A program made the position numbers and the translations under genes. A stretch of 64,000 nt of DNA from Mobula birostris (Eukaryota). The notes under the pieces were generated by a model. That model was given only the letters and a program-made list of their open reading frames with translations. It was not told where the DNA came from and made no database searches. Positions 16,407-62,017 of this stretch are shown in pieces. Numbering within the stretch: position 1 is the first letter of the stretch; every line of letters begins with the position of its first letter. Where the stretch lies: the NCBI RefSeq assembly GCF_030028105.1, contig NC_092395.1, forward strand, positions 30,348,424 through 30,412,423, written 5' to 3'.

Positions 16407-16798
16407 CTAATGACATCCACAACTGCCAGCAACCATATCATCGTACTGTTTTAGGACCACATTTTCATCATCATCAAAGTACAGCAGGTTGATGGAGAAG
16501 AGTTTGTCTGGGATGCAGCAGGGAGTTGCAACACCATTAGTTAGCTTAAGGGCATTTATAATGGATTGGACGGTGGCGTGGTTGGTAGGTCTCATATTTT
16601 GCCCCAGTGGGAAAATGCATGCTCCTTTGCAGTGGTAGGCGTTGTAACCCCGAGGGGAGATGATCCAACCAGACCAGCCAATCTCTTCAAAATCCACATA
16701 AAGAGGATACCTCTGGCAGCCTTGCAAATTCAAAGATCTTGTGTTGCGACCCTGGCTTGCTTTATCGTGAAGTGTCACTTCCGAGAGAAATGGAGTCT
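16407..16798 (-). CDS. ADMP: ADMP exon 5: furin site and mature TGF-beta cystine-knot domain
   Basis: tttgccatag|(E)TPFLSE...RNTR/SLNLQGCQRYPLYVDFEEIGWSGWIISPRGYNAYHCKGACIFPLGQNMRPTNHATVQSIINALKL...CCIPDKLFSINLLYFDDDENVVLKQYDDMVAGSCGCH*. Seven cysteines; near-identical to the ADMP mature domain as I recall it. Spliced CDS 1128 nt, 375 aa. Minus-strand AATAAA at 16043-16048 and 16070-16075. Confidence 0.97.
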
Positions 16799-17184
16799 CT
16801 ATGGCAAAGTCAAAAGTTAACAATGTTATTAACAAAATCAAATCAAAATTATTACAGATGTCAATATATAAAGACATTAAGAACCTGAAGACTGTTGTGG
16901 TTTTAAGGGCAGCAGAACCTATTCTATGCATGTGGACCCACTGTAGATCTGTCTTTATGTGTGGATATATTACCTTGCTGATTTATATAATTTTATCATT
17001 TATTTACTTCTCAAGCAGATTGGAATTAGTTTTCCATTTAAACATTTGGATCCTGCTTTGCAGTATTTCGTCAAGTTAAATACAAAGCATCAAGTATACA
17101 AGTTAGAATAGCTATGGACTACTTAATCTGTTGAAGCTTTTCTAATATTTTCTCTGCTGGACATTATTTCCTTACACACTCCAT

Positions 17185-18150
17185 GTACACTTTACTCAAT
17201 GCATAAATGCATGCAGACATAGTCAAGAGGTTCAGTTTGTCATTCAGACCAAACATCAGATAGGAAAGAAATGTGATCTAAGTGACTTTGACTGTGGAAT
17301 GAGAGCTGACAGCGGCCACACCCTGCGCAACGGCCTCGACAAGCCGTCTAAACCAGGTGAGGGTAGCCAACGGGTCTCAAACCCTTGGTGAGATAGGGAG
17401 ATGTCTATCCCAGCATGTGAAGGCAGACTCCGGCGGATTGAGTGGATGAGACCCATGGAAGGTCCAATGGTCAAGAAGGCAGTCTCTGCAAGCGTCATGG
17501 AACATGTAGAACATAAGACACAGAAGACGTCCTGGTCATCCACTGCGCCTAGTCCCATCTCCAGCTGCCTTGACTCTGTCTTGCCACTGGATTCAAATGG
17601 GAATTGGGAAGAGAGAGTGAGGCTGACGCTGCGCAGCTCTCCCTCACTTAAATTCAAATCGTGCTCGGCTCGACACCATCAATAGTGTCGAGGTCTTCAT
17701 CGACGACGATGATGGACGAACACATGACTGTGGAATGATTGTTGGTGCCAGACAGGGTGGTTTGAGTATCTCAGAAACAGCTGATCTCCTGGGATTTTCA
17801 TGCACAGCAGTCTCTAGGGCAGGGGTTCCCATGCTAGGATCCACGGACCCTCGGTTAATGTTAGGGGCCCATGGCAAAAAAAAGGGTTGGAGAGGATGGT
17901 GCAAAAAAAAAACATCTAGTGAGCTACAGTTCTGTGGTCAGAAATGCCTTGTTAATGAGAGCGGTCAGAGGAGAATGATCAAACTGGTTCAAGCTGACAA
18001 GAAGGCAACAGTAACTTGAATAACCATGTGTTACAATAGTCGTGTGTGGAAGAGCATCTCTGAATGCACAGCACATTGAACCTTGAAGTGGATGGGAAGA
18101 CTATGAACATGCACAAAGTGGCCATTTTATTAGGTACAGGAGGTACAGTG
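17185..18150 (+). mobile_element. Tc1/mariner-derived non-autonomous element carrying nested insertions, in ADMP intron 4
   Basis: MIVGARQGGLSISETADLLGFSCTAVSR...LVQADKKATVT is a Tc1 transposase N-terminal remnant; homologous to 33257-33771 in the opposite orientation. Confidence 0.75.
17303..17724 (+). mobile_element. Retroposed insertion (SINE- or RTE-like) with a 14-bp target-site duplication
   Basis: tgactgtggaatga at 17289-17302 and 17725-17738 flanks a GC-richer segment ending in gacgacgatgatg. Confidence 0.7.
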
Positions 18151-19537
18151 TCTGCTAATAACACTGAGACTGGCAGTATGATGTGGACTGTGAAGAACTG
18201 TTTTAGAGCAGACTGGCAGTAAAACTGCTAATGGGGAAAATCTAGTACACGGTCTGATTCATCTGTTCAAATAAGAGACTGCAATCATCCTGTCAAACTC
18301 TCCAGTCTGTTGGATTGAGGATAACTTGCTTCCACTTAAGTGTTGTGGATTCTAAGACTAATGATGAGGCCAAAGTGGGAACCACAAACTGACATAGGGT
18401 CGAAGATTCCTGTCAGGCCAGGTGGGCAGGGCTAGTACACCAGTTATACTGTTTTTGTGTGGGTTCAGTGAGCAGCAGCCTGAATTCAGATACTCCTCAT
18501 CCCTCTCTTGCATTGGAATGTGGGCCACTGTTCAGCAAGTAGTAATATCCCTTGATTTTAAAACAGCTCCTTCTCAGTTACTGGTTTGGCAATGCCCTCT
18601 AGTGTTCATTGATATTGACTTTGTTTCTAATAATAATCTCTAAATCTTTGAATGTTAAACAAAATCACTGTTACATTACCATTCACTACTGAAAGCTACA
18701 ATTGTCTCCTCATCATTATTATTTGCTTTTCCACAGGCTACATTAGTTCACCAGTATATCACCCAACTAGTCTTTAATGTATAATGAATATTAATCTCCA
18801 ATTTGCTTCAAATTTCTGACAGACATATAATTGAAGTTTAAAGACAGTAGTCTGGGATATTAAGAGATTTATGAAAAAGTGAATTGAAAATATAAATGAC
18901 TTCCAAGGGCAAGGCAGAAGATGGAGGAGACGGGAGGATCTATCCTGTCATTGCAATAGTAGTCAGGAGGACAACTAATGGTTAATTGCAGTGCCCTCAG
19001 GCTGGTGACAGTTAGAGAAATTACTCTGCATGTCCAAACAAATAGTCCAGATTATGTTTCATCCTATAGAATCCAATATGCAGTTATACCTTAAGGCATT
19101 AAGTCAGCTAGTATATGAACCCTATGAACCATCAGGAGTTATGAATTAATCACAACTGTACGTAACTGAATGGGAATTTTATTCTCTAAAATGAACCTGA
19201 AGGAAGACTAGAGGGAACCAGTCTGACATTAAGCTAACTCATTGATGTACAGATCCAATGACAACTTTCTGTAAGAGCATCAGTACATCACTGTGGTAGA
19301 CTCTATACAAAATGCTGGAGGAACTCTTTGGAGAGGAATAAACAGTCAACATTTTGGGCCGGTACAGGACTGATAACGGTCTCAGCTCGAAACATTAACT
19401 GTTTATTCCTCTTCGTAGATGCTGCCCGACCTGCTGAGCTCCTCCAGCATTTTGTGTCTGTTATTCTGGATATCCAGTATTTGCAGAATCTCTTGTGTTT
19501 GTGATAGACTCTTTAGTTGTAGAAACTGAAGAATTAC

Positions 19538-19730
19538 CTATTGAAGAACTGGAGGTGGCAGTCCCTCTCCTTTCATCGTCTGTAAAGAGAACCACCATTG
19601 GATTTTTGCTACTGTGATGGTCTCTCCCAGTGGCAAAGTGGATGTAGTTATTGAGTTGCTCTCCAGCCAGGCCCTGCACACTGACAAGCAAGCCTTTGTT
19701 GCTATCTTTATCCTGTATCCAGTCATACAC
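19538..19730 (-). CDS. ADMP: ADMP exon 4 (prodomain)
   Basis: tgtag|VYDWIQDKDSNKGLLVSVQGLAGEQLNNYIHFATGRDHHSSKNPMVVLFTDDERRGTATSSSSI+G|gtaatt; 193 nt, phase 0 to 1. Confidence 0.93.
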
Positions 19731-20639
19731 CTACATAAATAAACAAAACTTCCATCAATCAAGTTCAGCAAGTGTTTCTGGCAGAATGAGATTCTTTCTG
19801 TTGTGCCTCATAAATTGCTTTTAGATTTTTGAATATTAAAGGAAATGAGAGATGGAGGGTTAGTATAGGAAAGCAGCCCTGAAGTCAAAGGTCAGTCGAA
19901 AGTCAGCCATGATCATACTGGATGATGAAGGGCTGAAGAGCAGGTATGAATGGCTGAATGACCTCCTAGCTCAATTTCTCATATTATTATGTTACCAGAA
20001 TGAGGTAGTGCTGAGTCTGATACAAAATAAATCTCCCTCAACCCAGTAAAAGTATGACTTAGTTCAAATTAACAGCTTTTTTAACTAGAGTATTTGGACA
20101 TCTCTGTCACAATTGATATTGGATGAAATTAAATGTTGAAATTTGTTGTGGCTCCATGTTGATTTAAAAATATACTGAACTGAATCCACCATTACTTCAA
20201 AAAACCTATTTTACATTTCATTGTTTTCTAATCCTGCTCAAGTTACTGTCTACTTGTAAAATTCATAATCCATCCAAACATCTGTAAGACCATGAATATG
20301 ACATCAGATGATGAGAGATGTTTCTGCTGTGGAGCTATGGTTGTAATTAGTTTTTAAATTAATCTACTGTGGCTCCCAGTCAGCCTGGCCTGCTTGTTTT
20401 CATTCAATTTCAGGGCACAAAATCCACCTTCTCCCTTGGGCCTACATACGAACCAATGCATTGCTCATTACACAGATGTGGATGGGGAACAGGAGCAGAA
20501 ACAGGTGAATGGCATCTCAAACCAGCTCCACCATTCAATAAAGTCATGGCTGATCCAGTTTCCCATGCTCTCTTCGTACTCCCTAGAGCCTCAGATGTAT
20601 GTAAATCTCCTCTGTGAACATATTCAATAACTCCAATCC

Positions 20640-22400
20640 CATAACTCTCGAGAGTAAAGAATCCCAAAAAGTCTTAGCCTTCTAAACTTTTTCACTGGTG
20701 TCTGAATTGAATAATCTCTTATGCTGAAATCAAAACTCCTTGTTCTAGATACCCCTACTAGAAGAAATATCCTCTCAATATCCACCCTGTCACACCCCTT
20801 CATAATCTTGTGTGATTCACCTTTCATCCTTCTAAGCTCCAATGAGTAGAGGCCAAACCTGCTCAACCTCCTCCGTGCGTCATCTGCGTCATCCCCAGAA
20901 TCAACCTAGTGAACGTACCTGCATTACCTCCATTGCACATTGATCCTTCCATAAATTTGGAAACCACAACTGTTTCCCCAGTTTGCAATAAAGTTACATC
21001 AAAACTATCTGACTTTTGTACACTGTACTCGTTTTAACAAAGGAAAAGATTCCATTCGTCTTTCGAATTATTAGCTGTACCGTTATAGCAACCCTTTGTT
21101 TCACACACTAACACCCCAATCCTTTTATACCCAACATTTTCTAGTCTAAATATATTGAAATAATCATTCAATATATCATTCTTCTTTTCAAAGTAGATAA
21201 ATTCATATTTCCCATGTTTCTGATTATCTGTCAACTTCATGCCACTCATTTAATCTATCTATCTGTGTCTAGACTCTTTGGATCCTATCACAAATTGCTA
21301 ACCGACTTACCTTCATGTGACCTGTAAATATGACCACAGTATATTTTGTTCCTTCATCACAAATAAGGATAATCGTTGAGGTCTCAGCCTTCATAGGTGA
21401 CACCCTAGTGGGTACTGATTACCAATCCAAAAACTTGCCCCAATTCTGTTTTCTGTTGGTTACCCACTCCCACTTCCATGGCAATATGTTAGCACCAACC
21501 CTGTGGACTTTTGTTTTATATAGTAAACTTTTATAGTTCTAAGTACATATATGTCACCATATACAACCCTGGGATTCATTTTCTTGCGGGCATACTCAAT
21601 AAATCCAATAACCATAATAGAATCAATGAAAGACTGCTTCAGTAGGGTGGACAACCAGCATACAAAAGTCAACCAAATGCAAACACAAAAAGAAAGAAAA
21701 AGTGAAATAATAATGATAAAAAAAAATCAGCAATGACATATTACTAAATGCCTTCTGGAAATCCAAATACAATTTACTGATTGCCTTTTATCCACTTTGT
21801 TACACCCTTAGTTTTGTCAAGCACACAAACGCAAAGTTCAGGAGACATGTCAAACTTCAGCCCCATTAAATCACTAAGTACATTTTATTTATTGATAGGG
21901 ATTGTTATAGATTGCTTCCTCCCTGTAGCCACTTGACTATTTCAATTGAGATGTCTTCCATGAAGACAGATTATATTTCCATTATTATTTCCCTAGTCTT
22001 ACACTTTAGCTGACCAATATTTATTTTAGCTGTTCTCTTCCTTTTAATATACTCTGTTTTAAATTTATTTTCTAGTTTACTCAAGAGCTTTATTTGCTCC
22101 TTCACAATTTCTTTATTCATTCTCCGCTTATTTGTAAGAAAAATTCTTTCCAATGCACATCTTCCTTCAATTTAACATTATCCTGAGCTTAATTAACTAC
22201 ATCCTTCTCACAGAGCCACTCTTCCTCACTGGTATAAATATTTATGAGATTTATCAAATTTCTTAAATATCTATCAATGTTAATCTACCATTTTATCCTT
22301 TCACATGTTTTGCTCAATTCCACTTTAGCCGACTGACCCTATTGTAATTACCTAGGGCATCCTTTAATATGAACTCATTAATTAACCCCATCTTATCAAT
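20640..22400 (-). mobile_element. Old, degenerate CR1 fragments in ADMP intron 3
   Basis: GLYSLELRRMKG...VDIERIFLLVGVSRTR; KRKRTAKINIGQLK..TREIIM. Confidence 0.6.
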
Positions 22401-22882
22401 AATACTATACCTAAAACAGCCATTTCCCTGGTTAGCATGACAAGGTATTGCTGCAAATCAAGCATCTAGTACTGTAATTGGCATGTGCTTAACGGCGCGG
22501 GCTGAGGTTGTGACACAAGTACTCCCCATAGTTCTAAAGTGACTCTGTATAATCTTCTGCAGGTATATGGGTACTGTGCAGTTATTCCTGTAATTATAAC
22601 AAGGATAAGTTCAATTATTGCCACAGGTATTACTGTCTTTTGACGTATTTACAACCAACGCTGACTAGTTTTGTTGGTTTAACAAGAGTTAAATGGCTAA
22701 CACAGGCATTATGGGCCAAATAGTCTTCTGTATTGTATTATCCATTAATTTTGTCAAGAGCTGGTATGGATACTAAATATGTTACAGCAGAAATTATGGG
22801 CATTCGCCATCAGTAATGGAAACCATGTAGTTATACATGCCATACAGAAACTACAAATATTATTTCTGTTGAAGACACTTAC

Positions 22883-23002
22883 AGCATTAGTGATTGTGAA
22901 GACCTCCCATGTGCTGTCATGGACTGGAAGTACTCTGGTTGACAATAATCTTTTCCCTTTTACTGTTGACGTGCTATTGTCCAATATCTGGTAGACACTA
23001 AC
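22883..23002 (-). CDS. ADMP: ADMP exon 3 (prodomain)
   Basis: tttctcag|VSVYQILDNSTSTVKGKRLLSTRVLPVHDSTWEVFTITNA|gtaagt; 120 nt, phase 0 to 0. Confidence 0.95.
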
Positions 23003-26052: not shown

Positions 26053-26195
26053 CTGACAAAGGTGGTGCTTATGCTGCCCAGGATCCTGGGACGGGCGACC
26101 CCGCAGTTTGAAGAGATGCAGCTCGGCGGTCAAGATCGTCTCGCTCTTGGCCACGCTGGACAGGTTGAAGAAGAACATGAACTGCTGATTACGTG
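26053..26195 (-). CDS. ADMP: ADMP exon 2 (prodomain)
   Basis: ctttcctcag|(A)RNQQFMFFFNLSSVAKSETILTAELHLFKLRGRPSQDPGQHKHHLCQ|gtaag; 143 nt, phase 1 to 0. Confidence 0.95.
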
Positions 26196-26295: not shown

Positions 26296-26575
26296 CTCTA
26301 TCCAGGAAGCTGCGCACCGTGTTTCCCACCAGCAGGTCGGGCTCTTTGGTCACCCCGTCCGCATCTGCCACCGTGTTGTACAGGTCCAGCATGTACTGGG
26401 GAGGTTGGCGTACCTTATGAGGCGCCGGCGGCGCATCTTCCATCCCGAACACCTCCAACAACCTCTTAAGTGCCTTGGACCGTATCTGTTGGCTCTGGCC
26501 GGGCAGGCTGGAGGTGTTACCCGGTCCCGAGGACACGAGCAGGAGAAGCAGCAAGGCACCGGCACCCGGGCGCAT
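26296..26575 (-). CDS. ADMP: Anti-dorsalizing morphogenetic protein (BMP/TGF-beta family), exon 1: signal peptide and prodomain start
   Basis: gccATG context; MRPGAGALLLLLLVSSG signal peptide; ALKRLLEVFGMEDAP...QPPQYMLDLYNTVADADGVTKEPDLLVGNTVRSFLDR; donor G|gtgag (phase 1); 280 nt. Confidence 0.95.
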
Positions 26576-41244: not shown

Positions 41245-41404
41245 TCATGAGGTTGTCCGGTGGCACTTACAGGATTTGATAGTATAGATGTTCCTGATCT
41301 TTCCATGTCTGTTCATGATTGCATGAATTTCATATTCCTGAGGAGAGTACCCATTGGATGAGCCATCTTCCCAAGCCACACATTGGTCACTATTATGCCT
41401 GTCC
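41245..41404 (-). pseudogene. pnhd: pinhead last coding exon
   Basis: tttttacag|(R)DRHNSDQCVAWEDGSSNGYSPQEYEIHAIMNRHGKIRNIYTIKSCKCHRTTS*; the phase-2 start fits the previous exon; terminal CxC. Confidence 0.9.
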
Positions 41405-43061: not shown

Positions 43062-43120
43062 CTTCGGAGACACCCACTTCCTGCAGTACACACTCCCAAA
43101 CATCTGCCAACATCGATTTC
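43062..43120 (-). pseudogene. pnhd: pinhead exon (EIDVGRCLG)
   Basis: tgtttcag|EIDVGRCLGVCTAGSGCLR+AG|gtaagc; 59 nt, phase 0 to 2. Confidence 0.9.
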
Positions 43121-43229: not shown

Positions 43230-43411
43230 CTTGAGCTCCTCTTCCTTCTCACCCCTGGAGTTAATGGTGATCACATAGTAATACTCCACATGGGGCAGTC
43301 TGTAGCAATTCTCTCGCACCTCCCATGATTGCACAGTCTGAATAAGCTCCAAACCATGTGGACTGTCCAGCACAACTGAGTCAAATTCAGTGGGTACACA
43401 TCTCAAACCAC
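43230..43411 (-). pseudogene. pnhd: pinhead exon (CVPTEFDS...CYRLPHVEYYY)
   Basis: ccctgtag|xGLRCVPTEFDSVVLDSPHGLELIQTVQSWEVRENCYRLPHVEYYYVITINSRGEKEEELK|gtactg; 182 nt, phase 1 to 0. Confidence 0.9.
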
Positions 43412-43964
43412 CTACAGGGAGCTAAACAGAGCAAGGCTATAAAAATGGCTTCTCTCAGTGACGCTTTATGAAACTCTGTCCATGAAGCTTCACTGAGGAG
43501 AATTGCTCGGACACTGATCACCACATCTCAAACTACAGCCCCGTTGTTCTCAAAAGCAATGAGCACCGCCCACGAGAACTGTCCTTTAACCATATTGGTG
43601 ATACAAGTTATATGGGAGGGCTTGCAACTGTTGATTCATTTATTCTTTAATTTGCACAATTTGTCTTCTTTTGCATTTTGGCTGTCAGTCTCTGTTTATG
43701 CATGCTTTTTTAAAATAAAATCTGTTGGATTTCTTTCTCTTCGTGAAAATGCCTGCAAGGAAATGAATCTCAAGATGTATATCACACAAAATGCTGGAGG
43801 AAATCAGCAGGCCAGACAGCATCTATGGAAAAAGTACAGACAACGTTTTGGGCCGACAATTTTTTTCCATAGATGCTGCCTGGCCTGCTGAGCTCCTCCA
43901 GCATTTTGTGTGTGTTGCTTTGACTTCTGGCATCTGCAGATTTTCTCTTGCTCAAGATAGTACA

Positions 43965-44575
43965 AGAAAGCAGACTACGCTCTGTCCGCCAGAGAAAGCA
44001 GGATCTCCCAGTGGCCACACATTTTAATTCCACATCCCATTCCCATTCTGACATGTCTATCCACGGCTTCCTCTACTGTAAAGATGAAGCCACACTCAGG
44101 TTGGAGGAACAACACCTTATATTCCGTATGGGTAGCCTCCAACCTGATGGCATGAGCATTGACTTCTTTAACTTCCACTAATGCCCCACCTCCCCCTCGT
44201 ACCCCATCCGTTATTTATTTTTATACACACATTCTTTCTCTCTCTCTCCTTTTTCTCCCTCTGTCCCTCTCACTATACCCCTTGCCCATCCCCTGGGTTC
44301 CTCCCCACCTTGTCTTTCTCCCTGGGCCTCCTGTCCCATGATCCTCTCATATCCCCTTTGCCAATCACCTGTCCAGCTCTTGGCTCCATCCCTCCCCCTC
44401 CTGTCTTCTCCTATCATTTTGGATCTCCCCCTCCCCCTCCCACTTTCAAATCTCTTACTAACTCTTCCTTCAGTTAGTCTTGATGAAGGGTCTCGGCCTG
44501 AAACGTCAACTGTACCTCTTCCTAGAGATGCTACCTGGCCTGCTGCGTTCGCCAGCAACTTTGATGTGTGTTGTT
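43965..44575 (+). mobile_element. Penelope-like element 3' fragment
   Basis: QDLPVATHFNSTSHSHSDMSIHGFLYCKDEATLRLEEQHLIFRMGSLQPDGMSIDF; the hammerhead core is mutated to TTGATGA. Confidence 0.82.
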
Positions 44576-47500
44576 TTACCTTTGCTTTAATCATTTTCTA
44601 GAAGTTAGACAGCTTAGTCTTGACTATAGGACTAACCGTCACCTCCCTACCTTTCTCAGCTGACTTGGCCACCCCTCCCCCTGTATTCTCGTTGATTCCC
44701 CGGTTTTAGGTGTGCCGAATCCCAGTGGTATATTAATGATGCTGAATTAGGCATGTTACTGGAAGAGATGTAGTCTCGTCTGCCGTTGATCTCCTGTGCT
44801 TCATGTTGCCATATAATCAACCCTCCACCCTCAGGCCCGAGATAACACACGGGCATGTAACAATACTCATTAACAATACTCTGTGCTAATTTCTGAAGAA
44901 ATCAACAATGTGCGCCACTGATGCCCTCACACCACCACCCTCCACAGTGACAAATGCTGCTCTAGGCTTTGTTCTACGCAGACATCAGCTAGGTTTTAAC
45001 CCACAGCTAACTTGGGCGATTGGACCAAGGGTTAAAATCGACCCACTGAGCCTGTATGCAGATTATGGGATGAATTTACACACAAGAACTTAACAGTGGT
45101 GTTTCGGTATTGGTATTTTCTATGTGACGTCTGGGTTACATCTCTATTTAACGTATTGGAATGCTTCCATGTAATATTTCAATGGAAAAGTCTCAGTGTG
45201 CCATTGTAGTATTTCCACAGTAGTGCAGTGGTTAGCACATCGCTTTACAGTACCAGGGACCTGGGTTCAATTCCCACTGCTGCCCGTAAGGAGTTTGTAC
45301 GTTCTTGCCGTGATTGTGTGGGTTTCCTCAGGGTGTCCTGGTTTCCTCCCACAGTTGGTCATTGTAAATTATCCCGTGATCCCGTGATTAGGTTAGGATT
45401 AAATTGGGGGCTGTGGGGGGAGGGGTTGCTGGGCAGCACGGCTCAAAGTGTCAGAAGGGCCTATTCCACTGTGTATCTTAATCCCAATCCATCAGTCAAT
45501 AAATAAATAAATCAATACTTCTATGTGATGTATTGTGCGGTGCTGCCTTGTAGTATTGCCAGTATTGCCTTACATTCCCTCAGTATGTAGAGTGTGTAAC
45601 CACGAGACATCTCTGGATAATGTGCTCTATTTATGCTGTGTTGTACCTTGGAGTGGTTTGGTCTGGTTTCACAGTGTGAAATTTCCATGTGGTATCCCAT
45701 TGTCTTCAACATGTATCTGAGGGTTTGTATAATGTCTTGGTAAGTGGACAGGCAGCTATCTGGAGCAAGAGTTTAAATAATAATGGGGATACTAAATAAA
45801 GAAGCAGCTTTTCAGCCTAGTTTTTCTGTTGGTTAAGTACAGAACCTCACCTTCTACCTCGTTATGAACTGGCACCTTATTATTTAACTGCACTTTGTTA
45901 CTGTTACCTTTTATTCTGCATTGTTATATTTCACCTTGTTCTACCTCGATGCACAGTGTAATGATTTGATCTGTATGCGAGACAAGCCTTTCACTGTATC
46001 TCAGCACACGTGACAGCATTAAGCCAATTCCATAAGACCATAAGCAGCATTAGGCTATTTGACCCATCGAGCCTGCTACACCATTCGATCATGGATGATC
46101 CTTTCAAAATCTACTTTTTATTTTCCCCTTTAACTCCCATTCTCCCCATAACCTCTGACACCCTTACTAATGTAGATCTATCAACCTCTGCTTTAAATAT
46201 ACCCAATGACTTGGCCTCCATAGCCGTCTGTGGCAATGAATTCCACTGACTTACTTCCCTTTAGCATTCCAATTGAAAATTTAAATCCAATTCTATATTT
46301 TCTGCAACATCTTTTCTCTTTACAATTGAATAATGAAATAGCTGTTGCCCGTGAAGCATGCAAATCTCAGAAATTAACCAGGATGAAGCATTGTTAATGC
46401 AGAGCATAAAACCTGTGAGAAAGGGACCCCCTGGGAAATGCACCCCGGTTAGCAACGCAGTAAGACTGAAAAGGAATAACCCAAATCTGCATCTGCAGAT
46501 TCTTTCTCGTTAGCGAGAATTCCACATTTATCGACTACAGAGCAGAGCAAAAGCCGGCATTGTCAGGCAGCAGGAGATAAAGGAAAGGAGGGCTGATGGT
46601 GGTCTGTGACCAGCAGAAAGAAAAGTCGACACGAGAACATTTTGTGAGGGTGAGGAGTGTCAAAATTGGTGGAATGGGGTGGGGCTCTGATGAGTGATCA
46701 AGACTGCCCTGTGTCAGATCTTCTAAGCAGTGCGGGAAACAGTCCGTTACATAAAACACAAACATGCTTTACACGGCAATTTTATTACCATCTTCATTGG
46801 CTAGATGGGTAAGTATTAACCTGCCCAAACTGACCCTGAAGTAATTGGCTCTCTGGGGCTTTGCAGAGGGCAGTTAGAACCACATTGATGTGAGTCTGGA
46901 GTCGCATAAAACCCCCAAACTGGTTAGGGCGGCAGATTCCTATTTCTGAAAACACTGGGGACAAGGGTGGGGTTTTTACAATAATCTGTCAACTTCATGG
47001 TCACCGTTGCAACAACATTTTTTTTTAAATTAGAGGTTTATTCAATATTTGAATTTGACTCCCTTGGCTGCTATCTTGAATTTGGACTCCATCCTCCAAG
47101 TCTCCAGATCTCTGGACAAGAGTGCAATAATTTAGCCTCTATCCTACGTTGGGTGCAACAATCACCATTCCCAGTTCTGTAACATTGTAAAACCTGGGGA
47201 TTGGGAATAAATCTCCCTCAACCCACTGCCCATCACCTCATTATGCAGTGTCTATGTGCTGGGTAATGGAGGTGTTTATTTCCTTTCCTTGTACAGACGG
47301 TAGCGGGATCTTTACAACTCTTTAGATGCAATCACAGGCAATCAATATTCTCCTTGTGAAACCCTGGGCAATTAACACTGACCAGACAGAATCACAGAGA
47401 TATACAGCACAGGGACAGGCTCTGTCGAGGAAATGATTTTGTTGTCAGTACATCAAAAACTAGGGTTTATAGATACAAATTACTTTCCAATGGGGAACCC

Positions 47501-48170
47501 AGGAGAATTTTTGTTTGCACAGAGAGTGGTGTGAATGTGGATCATGTTACCATAAGGAATCATTGCGGCGAAGAGCATATTTGCATCCAAACAGAAACCG
47601 GAGAAGTTGCAGCGAGGGTGTTACACTTGTGGTGTTCGATGCAGGTGGGTGGGAGGAGCTTCGTGTGTTGTCTAATTACTCAATGCACCAGTCGAGTGGA
47701 GACACCACGGCTGAGGCTCACACCGGGAGCAACAATCAAAAGGAACTCAACAGCATCTCTGAAGCGAAATGGGCAATTGACATTTCAGGCCGAGATCACA
47801 ATGAATGGTCTTGACCTGAAACGTAGAGTTCCTCTGGCAGGTAGATTGCTGCACCAGTAGAAGGATGGGTTCATTCCTGAAGAGTTCCACATAATTCTCA
47901 TTTTCTTGCTTTAAATAAATGCACTTAGGCCTGTATAGTGCAGAATGTTAGACTTGATTATCATTGTTTTCACCCCCTCTAGTTGTGTGGAGTTGCCACC
48001 TCCACACTAATATTCAGCTGGGGTCTGCCAAAAAGCTCCTCACCAGAAGTGTTCTAACCAATGGTAACTGACCAGAAATATTAAGTCAGCTTCTCTACTT
48101 GTCAATGTTGCCCAACCTGTTGAGTTTGTTTTTTCCTTGGCATCATCTGTTTTATTTCTGTCTTCCATAA

Positions 48171-48683
48171 AGGCTGATTTATACTTCTGCGTCAAATTGA
48201 TGCTATAGGTACGGCATAGCCGCGAACCCTACGCAGTGCCTACGCGGATCCCTATGCCATAGCCTGACGTGCACCTCTCCCAAAATGTAACTACGCGTTG
48301 CGGCAACGCAGACCGCAACAACTGTGAGTGGTCCACTTGGTAGCATCGCATTTCCTCCTACGCTGCAATAGCTTCCCACTGGGCGACTGAAGGGCAGGAA
48401 GGAACTCTGGCTGCAATGCTTTCCATAAAGATTTACAGACCTTCGAAATTATGGAGGGCACATTTCACTTTTACGAAAAGAGACTCCCGCTTCAAACTTG
48501 TTTACCCGGAGAAAGACTACCGTGACCATGAAACCTGGCACAGGCAGGTGTGTGCACATGTGTGACGTGCGCGAATTGCAGAGCGACGCAGACACACCAA
48601 TGCACAAGTATAAATGCTCAGAACGGCATTGCCCACTTTCGTAGGCTACGGCGCAAGCTTGACACACAAGTATAAATCAGCCT
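48171..48683. mobile_element. PIF/Harbinger-type MITE
   Basis: Terminal inverted repeats aggctgatttatactt ... aagtataaatcagcct, flanked by TAA on both sides. Confidence 0.85.
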
Positions 48684-49884
48684 TAAGACGATGACTTGCA
48701 GGACCAGGATCAAGCCATTCAGCCCAATCGAGTCTGCTCCTCCACTTGGTCATGGCTGATTTAGTTTCTCTCTCAACCCTTTTCATCTACCTTCTAAAGA
48801 GCAAATGAAAAGCTAGCAGGACAATTTCCATCATCAATAACGAGCACTTGAGCGTCAAAACATGTTGCTGAAGCATTTACAGCTATTTTAAGGTTGAAGT
48901 GCTCGTCCATCTTGACTTCCTTTCAAAGTTTCCCCAGCAACAGGAGTGGGTATGCAACCAATTGGATTAACTACTTCACACGACATTAAAAAAAAATCAG
49001 CAAAAGCTACAGGACAGGACAACATATAGATGGAAAAGCTGTGCTCCAGAAGAAGCCATATCTCTAGCCAAGCTGTTCAAACTCAGTCAATCACACAATT
49101 TCAATTTACTCAGAAGCATGAAAAGTTATCCAGCTTTATCCTATTCCAACACCTGACTTTCGCCATATTCAGAAGATAAATCCAGGGGGATCTATAGAGT
49201 TAGGGAAGGTTTCTTATTTCCTGTGTAACACTTTCACACTTAAGCAAAAATATTCAACTCTGTTCATCCCGAAATCCACTTCCATACTTCAGGCAGCTAC
49301 AGAGTTAAATTATGCAGGAAACCTGAAATTAATGTGCAAAACGCCAGGAAGTCTCTGCAGGTCAGGCAATAGGTAAGGAGACAAGAGTCAGCATTTAAGT
49401 CATTGACTTTCAGAGGAGGACTAGGTTCAAGCTGTGGAAACAAATGCCTGCCAATCCTGTCACAGGCAATTCTCTTTAAATACTTACATTTCTCCTTTCC
49501 TTCGTGACAGCTGGGAAAGAAAGTCTGAGCAGCCCAAGGGAGGAGAAAGAGATATATGTTTTAACTATCTACAAAAAGGGAAATCTACTCCACTGGATGT
49601 GAGTCAGCAGAAAGCCTAAAGCATCTTTCTCCTTGCTCCATGTACCATGTATTGAAGATGGGCTGGCTGAGCTCCAACATGCTCATGCTGAAAGCTACCC
49701 TCCTTCCTCCACCAGCCTCCTATCTGCTCATCCATAATTCTCAAGATTTGTGAATGAGGAGAGTCTTTCCTCAAGGCTGGAACAGAAATAAGAGGTTTTC
49801 TTGGGCTTCTGCACAGGGTCTTGTTCTTTCAGCCCATCAAGTGCATAGAGGTTCTGACTGAAGTGATTCCATCAATCCTCTAGA

Positions 49885-50600
49885 GTTATAGAGCTCAGAA
49901 GCAGGCCCTTCAGCCCATCTAGTACATGGCAAACTGTTATTCTGCCTAATCCCATCAATCTGCACCTGTACCATAGCCCTCCAAACACCTCAAATCCCTG
50001 TACTTATCCAAACTTCACTTAAATATTGCCATCAAACCTGCATCCACCACTTCTGCTGGCAGCTCGTTCCACCCTCTCACTGCCCTTTGAGTAAAGAAGA
50101 TCTGCCTCAGGTTCACCCTTTATCTTTAACCTATGACCTCTATTACTAGTCTCACCCAAGCTCAGTGGTAAAAACCTGGTTGCATTTACCCTTTTGTCCC
50201 TCATAATTTTGTATAAATCTATCAAGTCTCCCCTCACTTGCCTACGCTCCCGAGAATAAAGTCCTAACATTCAAACTTCCCCTATAACTCAGCTCCTCAA
50301 GTTCCAGCAATTTTCTCTGTACTCTTTCAATCTTATTGATATTTTTCCTGTAGGTAGATGACCAGATTGGGCACACAATATTTCAAATTTGGTCTTATAA
50401 CAACTTCACAATAACATCCCAACTCCTGTACTCAATAGTCCAAGTTATGAAGGCCAGAGTGCCGAAAGATCTCTTTATGACCCTATCTACCTTCAAGGAA
50501 TTGTGGATCTGTATTCCTCGATCCCTCTGCTCTACTCCAGTCCTCAGTATCCTACCATTCACTGTGAATGTCCTACCCTAGTTTGTCCTCCCAAAGTGCA
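49885..50600 (-). mobile_element. CR1 LINE 3' fragment
   Basis: LGLYSRERRQVRGDLIDLYKIMR...RGHRLKIKG. Confidence 0.8.
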
Positions 50601-50874
50601 GTCCCATCTTTCCCTCATTACCACTTCGTGGTATCTCTCGTGCATATGTCCATTAACTCCCTTTTGATTTGCCATTAACTGTTTTAAGGAATAATTTACA
50701 GTAGCCGATTACCCCACGGGGGATGGAAGTAGGAACCCTAGGCCCCAGGAGGGGAAACCCATGTGGTCATGGACAAGTTCAACATAGACAGCAGCTGAGG
50801 TCAGGACTGAACCAGGATCAACACTCCCTAGGTTTCTACTACTTGTATCTATGTCCTACTCTTGTTGGCCCATC

Positions 50875-51136
50875 TCAAAGTGCATCTCCTATTTATCCGG
50901 ATTAATGTTAAAGGCTTGATGGGTAAATTGAGTGGGCCATTCAGTACCCGACTGAAAGGCAGCACAGTCTCGAGGAAGTTGAATAACCTAATTTCACCCC
51001 TATTACACCCTGAAAATATTTACGCGCATTCTCCACTGTTTAAGGTTCTCAACTCTAAACATAGAGGATTTGAACAAGAGGGTCCTCCTGGTGCCAAATT
51101 TCATCTTCCACTCCACAGAAATATTCTGCAGGTTTC
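50875..51136 (-). pseudogene. pnhd: Decayed central pinhead exon remnant
   Basis: After ttttttaag the frame reads ETCRIFLWSGR*NLAPGGPSCSNPLC. A shifted frame then reads VENARKYFQGVIGVKL...*MAHSIYPSSL*H*SG*IGD. These resemble Pinhead PSC...C, ERxxLFxGxxEVEV and FPxSxxExxIDVGxC in the right order. Stops at 51103-51101, 51022-51020 and 50943-50941. Confidence 0.5.
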
Positions 51137-51194
51137 CTTAAAAAATACTCATTAGTTTGAATATTAAATATTTTATGTGAAAATAATAAATCAC

Positions 51195-51337
51195 CTCACA
51201 TATCTGGAGTTGTTCCAGCACCCAGAGATGTTTGGAGAATCCAAAAATTTCAAAGTTGCAACTTGCTGATTGCCGGTTACTACCACACTGGGAGCCACAC
51301 TTTCCAATATCCACACTGATTGGACTGCGGGAGATAT
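51195..51337 (-). pseudogene. pnhd: pinhead exon (DISxSPISVDIGKC)
   Basis: ttttcctggcag|(D)ISRSPISVDIGKCGSQCGSNRQSASCNFEIFGFSKHLWVLEQLQICE|gtgatt; 143 nt, phase 1 to 0. Confidence 0.88.
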
Positions 51338-54044: not shown

Positions 54045-54134
54045 GTATACAACCATGAGATTTATCTCCTTACAGGAAACCACAAAACAAGGAACATGAA
54101 GGAACCCACTGAATAAAATATTAACAGACACTCA

Positions 54135-54138
<4 letters not shown>

Positions 54139-54188
<50 letters not shown>
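54139..54188. repeat. (AG)n microsatellite
   Basis: About 25 AG units. Confidence 0.97.
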
Positions 54189-54195
<7 letters not shown>

Positions 54196-55035
54196 AACAC
54201 AAATCGTGCAAACAATAAATGCAAGCAACAGCATTCAGAAGGAAAGTGAGTCTATAGATACAAAGCCCAGAGCTGGCCCACAGCCTTGGTTCATCTCACA
54301 ACGAGGCAAGTTTGAATGGCGGAGCAGGCTCACTGAGCCAAATGACCTGCTCGTGGTCCTATTGCCTTCTTTTCTATATATTCCCATCATTTATGATACC
54401 CCCCAAGCTGAGGAGGCAGCTAAGAATCACCCACCCAGGGTGGGTCCACAATCACACGTTAGCCGGAGCAGATTTCCTCCTTGAAGGCAGGAGGGCTTGA
54501 TAGTTACCATTACCGTACTGAGATTAGCTTCTTTCTTCATACTTCATTCAAGATCCCCAGCTGCCACAGCGAGATGTGAGCATGTGTCCAGATCAATGGT
54601 CCATAAAGCCGGCTGTTAGCCTAGTAACCTAACCACATCCTTAACATATTCTCTCCTTCCCATGAATGGCCTGAGCACTATAACTGTCCTAACACCTGGA
54701 CATGAGGGAGGAGCTGGCAAAAGTTGACTGGAAAGATACCCTAGCAGGGATGACACTGGAACAATAATGGAAGCTATTTCTGGGAATAATACAGAAGGTG
54801 AAGGATCAGTTCATTCCAAAGAGGAAGAAAGGTTCTAAGGGGAGTAAGGGGCGACCATGGCTGACAAGGGAAGTCAAGGACAGTATAAAAATAAAAGAGA
54901 AGAAGTATAACATAGCAAAGATGAGCGGGAAGCGAGGATTGGGAAACTTGTAAAGAGCAACAGAAGGTAACTAAAAAGGCAATATGTGGGGAAAAAATGA
55001 GGTACAAAGGTAAGCTAGCCAAGAGTATAAAGGAG

Positions 55036-56273
55036 GATAGAAAATAGATGCAGGAGTAGGCCATTCGGCCCTTCGAGCCTGCACCGCCATTTATTATGAT
55101 CATGGCTGATCATCCAACTCAGAACCCCGCCCCAGCCTTCCCTCCATACCCCCTGACCCCCGTAGCCACAAGGGTCATATCTAACTCCCTCTTAAATATA
55201 GCCAATGAACTGGCAACTGTTTCCTGTGGCAGAGAATTCCACAGATTCACCACTCTCTGTGTGAAGAAGTTTTTCCTAATCTCGGTCCTAAAAGGCTTCC
55301 CCTCTATCCTCAAACTGTGGCCCCTCGTTCTGGACTTCCCCAACATCGGGAACAATCTTCTTGCATCTAGCCTGTCCAATCCCTTTAGGATCTTATACGT
55401 TTCAATCAGATCCCCCCTCAATCTTCTAAATTCCAACGAGTACAAGCCCAGTTCATCCAGTCTTTCTTCATATGAAAGTCCTGCCATCCCAGGAATCAAT
55501 CTGGTGAACCTTCTTTGTACTCCCTCTATGGCAAGGATGTCTTTTCTCAGATTAGGGGACCAAAACTGCACACAATACTCCAGGTGTGGTCTCACCAAGG
55601 TCTTGTACAACTGCAGTAGTACCTCCCTGCTCCTGTACTCGAATCCTCTCACTATAAATGCCAGCATACCATTCGCCTTTTTCACCGCCTGCTGTACCTG
55701 CATGCCCACTTTCAATAACTGGTGTATAATGACACCCAGGTCTCGTTGCACCTCCCCTTTTTCTAATCGGCCACCATTCAGATAATAATCTGTTTTCCTA
55801 TTTTTGCCACCAAAGTGGATAACTTCACATTTATCCACATTAAATTGCATCTGCCATAAATTTGCCCACTCACCCAACCTATCCAAGTCACCCTGCATCC
55901 TCTTAGCATCCTCCTCACAGCTAACACTGCCACCCAGCTTCGTGTCATCCGCAAACTTGGAGATGCTGCATTTAATTCCCTCATCCAAGTCATTAATATA
56001 TATTGTAAACAACTGGGGTACCAGCACTGAGCCTTGCGGTACCCCACTAGTCACCGCCTGCCATTCTAAAAAGGTCCCGTTTATTCCCACTCTTTGCTTC
56101 CTGTCTGCTAACCAACTCTCCACCCACACCAATACCTTACCCCCAATACCGTGTGCTTTAAGTTTGCACACTAATCTCCTGTGTGGGACCTTGTCAAAAG
56201 CCTTCTGAAAATCCAAATATACCACATCCACTGGTTCTCCCCTATCCACTCTACTAGTTACATCCTCAAAAAA
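55036..56273 (-). mobile_element. 5'-truncated CR1 inserted antisense into the plus-strand CR1
   Basis: Uninterrupted frame from EFFEDVTSRVDRGEPVDVVYLDFQKAFDKVPH through FADDTKLGG to the ORF2 stop, followed by the 3' UTR. Confidence 0.92.
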
Positions 56274-57209
56274 TTCTTTAGGTATGTGAAGAGGAAAAGA
56301 ATAGTTGAGACCAAAGTTGGGCCCTTGAAGACAGAAACGGGTGAAATTATTATGGGGAACAAGGAAATGGCAGACAAGTTGAACAGGTTCTTTGGATCTG
56401 TCTTCACTAGGGAAGACACAAACAATCTCGCAGATGTAATAGTGGCCAGAGGACCTAGGGTAACAGAGGAACTGAAGGAGATTCACATTAGGCAGAAAAT
56501 GGTGTTGGATAGACTGATGGGACTGAAGGCTGAAAAATCCCCAGGGCCTGATGGTCTGCATCCCAGGGTACCTAAGGAGGTGGCTCTAGAAATCGTGGAC
56601 GCATTGGTAATTATTTTCCAATGTTCTATAGATTCAGAATCAGTTCCTGCAGATTGGAGGGTAGCTAATGTTATCCCACTTTTTAAGAAAGGAGGGAGAG
56701 AGAAAACAGGCAATTATAGACCAGTTAGCCTGACATCGGTGGTGGGGAAGATGCTGGAGTCAATTATAAAAGATGAATAGCGGCACTTTTGGATAGCAGT
56801 AACAGGATCGGTCCGAGTCCGCATAGATTTACGAAGGGGAAATCGTGCTTGACTAATCTTCTGGAATTTTTTGAGGATGTAACTATGAAAATGGACAAGG
56901 GAGAGCCAGTGGATGTAGTGTACCTGGACTTTTAGAAAGCCTTTGATAAGGTTCCACGTAGGAGATTAGTGGGCAAAATTAGAGCACATGGTATTGAGGG
57001 TAGAGTACTGACATGGATAGAAAATTGGTTGGCAGACAGGAAACAAAGAGTAGGGATTAACGGGTCCCTTTCAGAATGGCAGACAGTGACTAGTGGGATA
57101 CCGCAAGGCTCGGTGCTGGGACCACAGCTATTTACAATATACATTAATGATTTAGATGAAGGGATTAAAAGTAACGTTAGCAGATTTGCAGATGACCCAA
57201 AGCTGGGTG

Positions 57210-58165
57210 TGTCATGGTTCGGTCCGTGAAATCTGTATTCCGGTTCACTGTCCGGTCCATCGACCCTTGCTCCAGGTTTTCCTGTCTACCCTGTTTCTGT
57301 TCTTGTTGAGCTCTAATTGAGTCAGCTGATGCTCATTGGGGCTGGCTGCATAAATACCTTCAGAGACCAGGGCATGGCTGCTGTATTGTTCTTGTCCTTA
57401 CTCCTTGTATCCCTTCCTCTGCCTTCTGTTTCCTCGCCTGAAACCCTGCCTTGTCTTGCCGATAACTCTTGCCTCGCCTTGCTTTGCCAGAAGCCTTGCC
57501 TTGTCTTGCCGGTAACTCCCACCTCACCTGAAGTTCTCGTCTCGCCTTGCATTGCCTGAATCCTTGCCTTGTCTTGCTGGTAACTCTCGCCTCGTCTCGC
57601 CTGCAGTCTTGTCCTGGAGCCACCCTGTACCTAGCTCCCTTCCTGTCCCTTGCCTCCGCCCAGGTAAGCCAGGCCATCTTGCCATTACCTGCGGTTGGTT
57701 CTGTCCCTTCCAGTCCCATGCCTCTGTTGGGTGGTGATCCGCGCCCTGCCCAGGAGTACCGCGCCCTGCCCAGGAGGAGCCTGCCTAGCCTCAAGCCTGA
57801 AGACTCCAGCCTCCTGCCTAGCCTCAAGCCTGAAGACTCCAGCCTCCTGCCTAGCCTCAAGCCTGAAGACTCCAGCCTCCTGCCTAGCATCAAGCCTGAA
57901 GACTCCAGCCTCTTGCCTCCTGCCAAGCCTCATCCTTGCTTAGTCTTGGGGTCCGAGCCAGAGGCAAGACCTAGGCACTGAGTCCTTGTCCAGTCTCTGG
58001 CTCGGAGTCCAAGCCCAGGCTCCTAGCTCTTTTGTCCAGTCCTGTTCCAAGTTCCCGGTTTTTGTGTCCATGTCCTTGTCATCACCCTGTATCCTAGTCC
58101 TGTCCCTAGTACTTCAGTGTCTGTGTCTTGCACTTGGGTCCGTTCCCAGACACGTCCTTATGACA
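57210..58165. mobile_element. Solo LTR (probably Gypsy-type), 956 bp, 5-bp target-site duplication GGGTG
   Basis: TGTCAT...ATGACA termini; gggtg at 57205-57209 and 58166-58170. Removing it restores the CR1 sequence aagctgggtggcagtgtgaaatg. Confidence 0.88.
57781..57912. repeat. 33-bp minisatellite, 4 copies, inside the solo LTR
   Basis: ctgcctagcctcaagcctgaagactccagcctc at 57781, 57814, 57847 and 57880. Confidence 0.93.
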
Positions 58166-59687
58166 GGGTGGCAGTGTGAAATGTGAGGAGGAGGTTATGA
58201 GAATGCAGAGTGACTTGGACAGGTTGGGTGAGTGGGCAGATGCATGGCAGATGCAGTTTAATGTGGATAAATGTGAGGTTATCCACTTCGGTGACAAGAA
58301 CAGGAAGGCAGATTACTATCTGAATGGTGTCGTTAGGAAAAGGGAAAGTACAACGAGATCTAGGTGTCCTTGTTCATCAGTCACTGAAAGTAAGCATGCA
58401 GGTACAGCAGGCAGTGAAAAAGAGCTAATGGCATGCTGGTCTTCATAACAAGGGGAATTGAGTATAAGAGCAAAGAGGTCCTTCTGCAGCTGTACAGGGC
58501 CCTGGTGATACCGCACCTGGAGTATTGTGTGCAGTTTTGGTCTCCAAATTTGAGGAAGGACATTCGAGCTATTGAGGGAGTGCAGCGTAGGCTCATGAGG
58601 TTAATTCCCGGGATGGCGGGACTGTCATATGTTGAAAGATTGGAGCAACTGGGCTTGTATACACTGGAATTTAGAAGGCTGAGAGGGGATCTGATTGAAA
58701 CATAAGATTATTAAGGGATTGGACACGATAGAGGCAGGAAACATGTTCCCGATGTTAGGGGAGTCCAGAAACAGAGGCCACAGTTTAAGAATAAGGGGTA
58801 GGCCATTTCGAACGGAGTTGAGGAAAAACATTTTCACACAGAGTTGTGGATCTGTGGAATGCTCTGCCTCAGAGGGCAGTGGAGGCCAATTCTCTGGATT
58901 CTTTCAAGAAAGAGTTAGGTAGGGCACTTAAAGATAGCGGAGTCAAGGGATATGGGGAGAAGGCAGACAAAGGGTACTGATTGTGGATGATCAGCCATGA
59001 TCACAGTGACTGGCGGTGCTGGCTTGAAGGGACAAATGGCCTACTCCTGCACCTATTGTCTATTGTCATCTGCCTTTCATTGTTGTGCACTGCAGCTGCC
59101 CAGGAAGCAAAATGCTTGAGGAAACATTTCATACAGTATAGGAATTTCATTAGTATGAGAAGTCACACTAGAGCAACTTTTAGAATATAGAACATAGAAA
59201 TCTACAGCACATTACAGGTCTTTCAGCCCACAATGTTGTGCTGACCATGTAACCTACGCTCAAAACTGCCTAGAATTTCCCTACTGCATAGCTCTCTGTT
59301 TTTCTAAGCTCCATGTACCTATCTAAGAGTCCCTTAAAAGACCCTATTGTATCCGTTTCCACCACCATCGCTGGCAGTGCATTGCACATTTTAGATTAAG
59401 GAGATTCATTAAGATGTGCAAGGTGAGTTTTTCTCGTAAATCAGGTTTAGGGTTTCACTGAATTTATAATCCAGCCATTCTCCGTCCTGGCCTCAGGATC
59501 GACCCTGACTCCAGGTTTATACTGTTAGGTTGTCTTTGGAAAGAATCAAAACAGTCAGCTTGCACCTGTACACGTTTCGCTGGACGGGATGGAGAGACAC
59601 AGGATCTCCAGATTGCATTTAGCTAGTGTATGTATAGAAAGAGGTTATAAAGAGGGCGGATGGAAAGGCCTTTGGTTCTCCTCTAAC

Positions 59688-59777
59688 CTTTTCCAATGAA
59701 GACAAAGTGAGGGAGTCTCCTGCAGCAGGGTCTCTCTTTAAGCCCAAAACTCCGGTGGTCTGTCAGAATTCCAGCAT
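59688..59777 (-). pseudogene. pnhd: pinhead exon (CCRR motif)
   Basis: ccttctgcag|(D)AGILTDHRSFGLKERPCCRRLPHFVFIGK+G|gttaga, compared with Pinhead CCRRxSHFxYIGxD. An alternative same-phase acceptor lies at 59760. The exon is absent from the ORF track. Confidence 0.82.
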
Positions 59778-60574
59778 CTGCAGAAGGAGCAAGGATCAGA
59801 ATCAAGTTTAATATCTCCGGCATATGTCATGCAATTTGAAACAGAGAACATAGAAAAGTACGGCACAGCGACAGTGCCTTCATCCTGCAGTCTGTGCCAA
59901 GCACGATGCTGATCCTTTTACCTGCACGCGATGCTTTTGCCTATCAAAAAGCCTCTCGAATTCTTGTACCTGCTTCCACCACAATTCCTTGCACTGAGAA
60001 AGAGATTCTGTCTGTCTACTCTGTCTATGCTTCCCATAATCTTATAAACTTCTATCATGTCTCCTCTCAGCTTCTGATGCTCTAGAGAAAACAACCATAT
60101 ACATCAGAGCAGAATTAGACCGTCTAGCCCCTTGAGTCTGCTTCGCCATTCCATCATGACTGATTTATTATCCCTCTCAACCCCGCTCTCCTGAAACCAC
60201 TGACACCCCTTACTGATCGAGAACTTATCAGCCTTTCTTGGTTTGTCCAACCTCTCCTTATTGCTCACACCCTCTAATCCAGTCAATATCCTGGAAATAC
60301 TCTCCTGAACCCCCTCCAAAGCCTTCACGCCCTTCTTGTATTTGCTTGACTGGAAATGCATGCAAGTCTGGTGTAACCAATGTTTTATACATGTATATCA
60401 TGACTTCCTGACTCGTATACTCTGTGCCCCTAGTGAGGAAGACAAGTATGACATATGCTATCTTTACCACCCTATTCCTAATTGTAAAATGATAATTAAG
60501 TAAAAAATTAATATGTAAAATATCAGCCTTACCTTCTCCTAATGTAGTAAGCTATCAATTCCCATGGTTATCTT

Positions 60575-61732
60575 GACTATACCTCTTCCCACCCATCTGC
60601 TGCGAAAATGCTATCCCCTTTTCTCAGTTCCGTAGCCTCTGCAGCATATGTTCATATGTGGCTTTGCTTTCAAGAACATCTGAGATATTCTTCTCCGAAG
60701 AAAGGGTTTTGAAGTTGCCCTCACCCGCATCTCCTCCATTCCCCGGACATCCACGCTCACCAGTGCCTTAACAGTGAAAGAGTTCCTCTCGTCCTTACTT
60801 ATCAATCCATGAGCCTCCACATTCAACACAGCTTCCACCACCTCCAAAGGGATCCTGCCACTAAGCGTATTTTTACTTTCCCCCACCCCCATCCATTGTC
60901 AACAGGGGTCACTCCCTCCACGATTCCTTTGTCCATTTGACCCTCCCCACTAATCTCCTGGCACTTAACCCTGCAAGCAGCCTACGGTGCTCCACCTGTC
61001 CATTCACCTCCTCCCTCACCTCCATTCAGGGCCCCAGACAGTCCTTCCAAGTGAGGCAATACTTCATGTGCGAATCTGCTGGGATCATCAATTGTGTCCA
61101 GTGCCTCTGATGCAGCCTCCTCTACATTGGTGAGACCCATCGTAAATTGGGGGACCATTTCGTCAAGCAACTCCGCACCATTCGCCACAAGCGGGACTTC
61201 CCGGTGGCAAACCGTTTTAATTCCGAATCCCACTCCCGTTCTGACGTATCAGTCCATGGCTTCCTCTTGTGCCAAGATGAAGCCACCCTCAAGATGGAGG
61301 AACAGCAGCTTATATTCCATCTGGGTATCCTCTAATCTGATGGTATGAATATCAATTTCTCCCCCCTCCCCTTCTGCTATTCCCCTCTCTGACCTTTTAC
61401 CTCTTCTCACCTACCTATTATTTCTCCCTGGGTCCCATCCTTCTTCCTTTTCTCCTATTGTCCATGCTCCTCTCCTATCAGATTCCTTCTTCCCCAGCCC
61501 TCGATCTTTCTCACCCACCTGGCCTCACCTATTACCTTCTAGCTAGCCTCGTCCCCTCCCCTCAGCTTTTTATTCTGGCGTTTTCCCCCTCCCTTTTCAA
61601 TTCTGAAGCAGGGTCTAGGCCCGAAATGTCGACCATTTATTCATTTCTGTAGATGCTGCCTGACCTGCTGAATTCCTCCAGCATTTTGTGTGTGTTGCTT
61701 TGGATTTCTAGCATCCTCAGACTTTCTCGTGC
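60575..61732 (+). mobile_element. Penelope-like element fragment (GIY-YIG region)
   Basis: LYIGETHRKLGDHFVKQLRTIRHKRDFPVANRFNSESHSRSDVSVHGFLLCQDEATLKMEEQQLIFHLGIL. Confidence 0.8.
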
Positions 61733-61947
61733 TTATAATGTAGTAAGGTCTGTTCTGATCTTTAAAGGTTTAAAAAATGGAGCCAGCTGCTACTTGCATC
61801 AACTCCAATATTTAGCCATCAAATATCATCCAGACCAGTCCATTTCCATATATTTCTGCGCATACTTTTCCTTTCAACTCTAACGTCACAGTGGACATCT
61901 GATGTCAGCAGCAAGAGCAGAGGTGGGCACTCCAAGATTGTAATTAC

Positions 61948-62017
61948 CTGTGGGAGCAGCGTAGTAGCTGCTGAGGACAGTAAATAGACAGGAGGCTCTT
62001 TCAGTCAGTCGAGGCAT
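61948..62017 (-). pseudogene. pnhd: Candidate pinhead first exon (weak signal peptide)
   Basis: ATG CCT CGA... gives MPRLTERASCLFTVLSSYYAAPT+G|gtaatt. The phase-1 donor fits the next exon and it lies in non-repeat sequence, but there is no diagnostic homology. Confidence 0.35.

Follow-up and report, generated by a model that had tools for sequence, protein, structure and literature searches.

A Pinhead gene without its conserved six-cysteine block, probably a recent unitary pseudogene, beside an intact ADMP gene in the ray Mobula birostris

The analysis described here concerns the genes for Pinhead (pnhd) and ADMP (admp) in a stretch of 64,000 nucleotides from the ray Mobula birostris (NCBI RefSeq assembly GCF_030028105.1, contig NC_092395.1, positions 30,348,424 to 30,412,423 of the forward strand; hereafter the window), and indicates that this Pinhead is probably a recent unitary pseudogene, young in age and lying beside an intact admp, a reading to which we give a probability of about 0.72. 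An earlier note, made from the letters of this DNA, had proposed that the window preserves an ancient cassette in which Pinhead stands in tandem upstream of ADMP. The tandem arrangement is borne out, Pinhead lying upstream of the intact admp on the same strand, with 14,670 bp between the pnhd stop and the admp ATG, as the only copy found in the genome; preservation in working order is not, because the Pinhead half lacks a block of six cysteines and the copies of related organisms look neutrally evolving. There is nothing new or unusual in the tandem pair as such, its order having been described from arthropods to vertebrates (PMC6989304; here and below, the papers are cited from excerpts of their text), and the new point is that the ray Pinhead is damaged while admp is intact.

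The pnhd gene is modelled as six minus-strand exons extending from 62.0 to 41.2 kb (Table 1), and all five introns are of the GT–AG type. Ten short motifs from the peptides quoted in the earlier note were located on the minus strand (59727, 59712, 51338, 51311, 43400, 43307, 43247, 43120, 43084, and 41280); they are real, nine lying where they had been placed and the tenth at 41280. With exon 4 as the query, 7 proteins were retrieved of 16 candidates, all seven named pnhd, and the exon is matched by every one of 121 reference Pinhead proteins; exon order is colinear in all 115 reference proteins that have at least three exon matches, and profile scores for exons 2–6 reach 20–87 bits over a background of at most 0.7 bits. 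Pfam offered no family fitting better than Pinhead, for which Pfam itself has no family, and a PDB sequence search gave no relative of Pinhead. Judged from these sequence comparisons, the gene is a Pinhead ortholog as had been proposed, a chance match being excluded by the reference and profile matches, and the guess of a cartilaginous fish source agrees with the closest labelled proteins, which come from rays (devil rays and stingrays). A whole-genome search with shark Pinhead returned five matches, all inside the window, and among the best candidates scored, no intact Pinhead occurs elsewhere in the genome, as expected of a unitary pseudogene.

The role of "hidden" gene that had been assigned to this Pinhead holds in part. 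A public model (P0001, "uncharacterized protein pnhd", 154 amino acids, source label Mobula birostris) is identical to exons 4–6, which were thus already annotated, whereas exons 1–3 are missing from this model; in their place, P0001 has a non-homologous start exon at 45700, likely a prediction patch, and it is filed as an ordinary protein with the deletion unflagged. Compared with shark Pinhead (P0005, P0002, and P0008; 322–323 amino acids), exons 2–6 of the ray align in order at 54–90% identity, and the gene stands upstream of admp, where other animals are reported to have it; the ray gene differs in the block, cysteines, and signal-peptide region described below. A LINE-type reverse transcriptase fragment (PF00078) lies at 55122–56777, in pnhd intron 2.

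Most importantly, shark Pinhead residues ~102–190 (about 89 of 322) have no counterpart in the ray, and the dots by which the earlier note had joined exons 3 and 4 stand for these absent residues rather than for unread sequence. The missing block holds Cys120, 126, 151, 153, 160, and 184, all present in 123 of 123 reference proteins, and, of the 92 columns that are conserved in bony vertebrates, 23 fall within it (counted over residues 99–191). Within intron 3, none of the 121 reference proteins finds a match on either strand; block profiles nowhere exceed 0.4 bits in the window; none of the five genome matches to shark Pinhead covers residues 100–182; and the 4.0-Gb genome, for which the four best candidates were scored, gave no match better than E 0.35. 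Relocation of the missing exons to a nearby place was considered and is ruled out for the 80 kb further upstream, where no match to the block was found. The sensitivity of the search is indicated by planted copies of the block, which at 35% divergence were recovered in 88–100 of 100 trials when whole and in 56–100 of 100 when split, and at 50% divergence in 30–98 of 100.

What remains of the protein is damaged as well. Of 20 conserved cysteine columns, 12 are kept, 6 are deleted, and 2 are replaced, Cys220 (present in 123 of 123 references) by Trp and Cys290 (122 of 122) by Tyr; in all, 15 of the 69 conserved columns that are retained are broken in the window, as against 4–11 of 69 in six full-coverage shark models. 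Pinhead contains three cysteine repeats, which align weakly at their Cys motifs (probabilities 11–77%), and through the deletion the front of repeat 1 now runs straight into the back of repeat 2, so that Cys41, 67, 71, and 226 would be left without partners if pairing follows motif spacing. In the signal region, the maximal nine-residue hydropathy, a crude measure, is 1.84, the lowest of 15 sequences, the 14 references ranging from 2.16 to 3.57. At the exon 3/4 junction, two of the four possible donor/acceptor pairs lead to a stop, after 103 and 110 amino acids, and the pair at homologous positions is the one that stops after 103. The resulting frameshift was rejected as a conclusive sign of gene death, since acceptor 43421 or donor 51200 restores the frame.

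The remnant also appears to evolve neutrally in relatives, as far as substitution counts indicate. Contigs of five related organisms (runs X5, X9, X10, X11, and X14) were aligned to exons 4–5, each listed difference being counted once, and gave 18 substitutions: 14 missense, 1 stop, and 3 silent, that is, 15 changing to 3 silent, where about 73% changing is expected under neutrality. An omega of 1 is not rejected (P 0.24), and an omega of 0.3 is rejected (P 0.0009, or 0.006 without run X5); the density of differences in the exons (15/192) is like that in intron 4 (9/109). Run X5, from organism B, has a CGA-to-TGA stop at 43066 together with Cys226Arg, run X10, from organism D, has a 1-bp deletion at 43073 in exon 5, and in three runs Ser replaces Leu259, which belongs to a conserved motif. 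A 1-bp loss (run X10) and a 2-bp gain (run X14) at the start of exon 4, both read by eye from loose-end letters, were excluded from the substitution test and are not counted as lesions.

Several observations weigh against a dead gene and must be set beside these results. The window's own exons contain no stop or frameshift, for which the probability under neutrality is 0.05–0.28, all modelled splice sites are canonical, and two of the four pairs at the exon 3/4 junction stay open, yielding 232 or 237 amino acids. Among the relatives, an omega of 0.5 is rejected only weakly (P 0.02, or 0.06 without run X5); the differences listed for exons 4–5 in runs X9 and X11 include neither a stop nor an indel; and Cys220 is kept in all four of runs X9, X10, X11, and X14, so that the line leading to the window must have lost it recently. 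For each variant, the evidence is a single contig per run at a depth of 6–16, 7 of the 12 differences of the X5 piece are shown, and 7 differences near contig ends are unlisted in the comparison of X9, X10, X11, and X14; the omega figures derive from exons 4–5 only and from the plain substitution counts of the remnant itself. Because the reference proteins were picked for similarity and length, complete proteins are favoured among them, and in three lower-ranked bony-vertebrate models (P0124, P0127, and P0133) the block is likewise largely or wholly missing, probably as a result of mis-prediction. Finally, on a fixed tree that also contained six sharks, coelacanth, and frog, the branch to the ray measures 1.67 times the shark mean for exons 4–6 and 1.58 times for ADMP, with no excess divergence; selection therefore acted on the retained exons during most of ray history, and the decay would be recent, which leaves room for an interval in which a two-repeat protein still worked. 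For the same lack of excess over ADMP, an ancient loss in all batoids at the pnhd locus was considered and found unsupported.

The neighbouring admp is an intact frame of 375 amino acids in five exons, with a signal peptide, the TGF-beta propeptide (PF00688), a basic cleavage site, and the mature domain (PF00019); its top matches are named ADMP at 93–98% identity, the last exon being 98% identical to a protein so named. No further gene was noticed between pnhd and admp in the list of open reading frames, in which short exons would be missed. In Ciona, zebrafish, and Xenopus, the pinhead–admp pairs (PMC6989304, PMC8188501, both in excerpt) share order and strand with the ray pair, and ADMP is intact there as here; both genes work in those animals, whereas the Pinhead half of the ray pair is, by its sequence, likely non-functional. 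At least 29% of the window consists of repeats, and in the pnhd–admp intergenic region the share is 45%. On the plus strand at 6251–8834, tail to tail with admp, lies a gene with a histone fold that corresponds to the POLE4 portion of fused bird models; POLE4 is joined to pnhd on one strand in four models, three of them bird-labelled, and the pnhd–admp pair appears, from these arrangements, to have been inverted as one block relative to POLE4 in one lineage. Farther out, at 700–900 on the minus strand, is an N-terminal exon of a protein kinase, whose look-alikes are kinases and for which Pfam and PDB gave nothing; we take it, as an unconfirmed guess, to be NIM1K.

Upstream of pnhd, a young hAT DNA transposon ends 387 bp before the ATG, and at least 39 copies with 95–98% identity, starting at the position equivalent to ~62404, are found elsewhere. 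Its insertion may separate the pnhd promoter from upstream elements. A GGCGCC at 62411 was rejected as a native Smad site like that of the zebrafish pinhead enhancer, because it lies within the end of this multi-copy element. About 3.5–6.7 kb past the window end (L003, G000:C30), broken pol pieces resembling those of a long terminal repeat retrotransposon, judged by eye from translations, also lie upstream of pnhd.

Table 1 Features of the pnhd–admp region, in positions of the window.
Feature	Position	Strand	Evidence or remark
hAT DNA transposon, young	62404..63432 and beyond	-	PF05699 E 3e-8
pnhd exon 1 (ATG; weakened signal-peptide region)	61948..62017	-	tblastn to shark P0005 residues 1-41, E 0.005
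pnhd exon 2	59688..59777	-	profile 20 bits; tblastn to shark Pinhead
pnhd exon 3	51195..51337	-	profile 41 bits; donor 51195 (presumed homologous position) or 51200 (alternative)
pnhd intron 3, expected site of absent P0005 residues ~102-190	43412..51194	-	0/121 reference matches inside
first exon of public 154-aa (amino acid) pnhd model P0001	45647..45700	-	Pinhead homology absent
pnhd exon 4	43230..43411	-	Trp in place of Cys220 (codon 43325-43323); alternative acceptor 43421
pnhd exon 5	43062..43120	-	run X5 (organism B): stop at 43066; run X10 (organism D): 1-bp deletion at 43073
pnhd exon 6 with stop	41245..41404	-	codon 41349-41347 is Tyr at Cys290
admp exon 1 (ATG, CpG-rich start)	26296..26575	-	open frame
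admp exon 2	26053..26195	-	open frame
admp exon 3	22883..23002	-	open frame
admp exon 4	19538..19730	-	open frame
admp exon 5 (TGF-beta mature domain, stop)	16407..16798	-	Pfam PF00019 E 5e-34

The alternative that fits the data next best, and which we nevertheless regard as unlikely, is that the ray gene encodes a shortened, two-repeat Pinhead that works in some rays and is dead only in others. The deletion lies in the register of the repeats, beginning after the DxGxC loop in repeat 1 and ending after the corresponding loop in repeat 2, and the hybrid would resemble the four-cysteine repeat 2, although this register depends on the weak alignment of the three repeats mentioned above; the two in-frame splice routes, the Cys220 kept in four relatives, the ordinary branch length, and the stop-free exons of the window would likewise suit a short working form. 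Such a protein is hard to reconcile with the loss of both Cys220 and Cys290 in the window, which would leave predicted partners unpaired, or with the least hydrophobic signal region of the 15 compared, and the ratio of 15 changing to 3 silent substitutions, the intron-like divergence of the exons, and the stop or frameshift in two of the five relatives also count against it.

It is improbable that the protein is dead and the locus alive, with ventral pinhead transcription or a chromatin loop still restraining admp in cis, as described for Ciona, and thereby keeping the remnant in place. A cis-acting, chromatin-level mechanism is cited for Ciona in the excerpt of PMC6989304, which does not go as far as the shared enhancer named in the earlier note, and the persisting tandem order and canonical splice sites, as well as the apparent inversion of the pair as a block relative to POLE4 when compared with the bird models, would accord with it; a recent pseudogene, however, would remain in place regardless, the young hAT element sits close to the pnhd start, and the observed/expected CpG ratio there is 0.22, versus 0.74 at the start of admp. 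Within the excerpted texts, moreover, zebrafish mutants are described as showing no ventral spread of admp (PMC6989304), and results in Xenopus conflict with the Ciona model (PMC8188501). The weakest alternative, that the middle exons exist and were dropped from the assembly, is very improbable: no contig of run X1, which may be the window's own sample, spans intron 3, and five gaps at high-depth repeat bins are unbridged, but the window contains no N, contigs of four organisms follow the unique parts of intron 3 in the same order, the block is not found elsewhere among the best candidates scored in the 4.0 Gb, and the cysteine losses, stop, and frameshift would be left unexplained.

In the recent-pseudogene reading that we prefer, an ancestor of these rays would have lost the middle exons by deletion, which left the first part of repeat 1 fused to the last part of repeat 2; selection would then have relaxed, and the remaining exons would have drifted, partly through changes at CpG sites. 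Any transcript would yield either a truncated product or a chain of 232–237 amino acids, left with cysteines that lack partners and with a signal region of low hydrophobicity, which is predicted to fold and to be secreted poorly. The loss was likely tolerated, with admp rising when pinhead was lost, by analogy to zebrafish, in which pinhead nulls have normal axes and up-regulated admp (PMC6989304, in excerpt); this null phenotype thus offers a reason why the loss of Pinhead could be tolerated. Double mutants of zebrafish are dorsalised (PMC6989304, PMC8034876). In Xenopus, as excerpted from PMC8188501, Pinhead binds and inhibits Admp and morphants show defects, and tolerance of the loss is therefore not universal.

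The ray case is worth comparing with the state of Pinhead in other vertebrates. According to the excerpts, mammals have lost both pnhd and admp, which was read as coevolution (PMC8188501), and no expressed pinhead was found in birds and mammals (PMC6989304); Pinhead is thus losable in vertebrates, as in the ray, and its loss as such is not new. Mammals, however, have lost both genes, whereas the ray keeps an intact admp and a readable Pinhead remnant, in which the steps of decay can therefore be ordered. The POLE4-fused pnhd models P0087 and P0165 look damaged, one being flagged as low quality by its source, and they may bear on the printed disagreement over bird pinhead. By annotation, ADMP-named proteins occur in seven batoid species, and one batoid-labelled pnhd protein was found, that of 154 amino acids, with none among the 120 of 179 matches listed in a wider search; such protein searches can miss short or divergent models, a further 48 matches were nameless, and, P0001 aside, 3 of these (out of 47) were identified by look-up.

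Among sharks, three pnhd models from carpet sharks (bamboo and epaulette sharks; P0123, P0007, and P0297) are 107–140 amino acids long, carry Cys226Arg, and keep part of the block that is absent in the ray, one of them carrying Cys262Arg in addition; at the level of protein models, this hints at a separate decay of Pinhead in bamboo and epaulette sharks. In carcharhiniform and lamniform sharks (P0002, P0008, P0296, and P0003), Cys268 is lost and a new Cys appears three residues after Cys279, which looks, from the sequences, like a compensating disulfide shift. It is a tentative idea with little probability that the Pinhead protein was lost at least twice in elasmobranchs (in these rays and, separately, in bamboo and epaulette sharks) while admp stayed intact and the dead gene was kept adjacent by transcription that limits admp in cis; if true, it would naturally separate the protein role of Pinhead from its regulatory role.

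No account of Pinhead decay in rays was found in the literature searched, outside which most subscription papers lie. The case is also a warning that short models annotated as "pnhd" in sharks and rays may be pseudogenes. The literature disagrees on what Pinhead does: in zebrafish it is described as a redundant, BMP-like helper of Admp, in Xenopus as an antagonist of Admp, and in Ciona as a cis-repressor. A lineage that keeps admp while Pinhead decays is a natural test of that role; the ray case agrees with the redundancy model and speaks against a strict coevolution of Pinhead and Admp.

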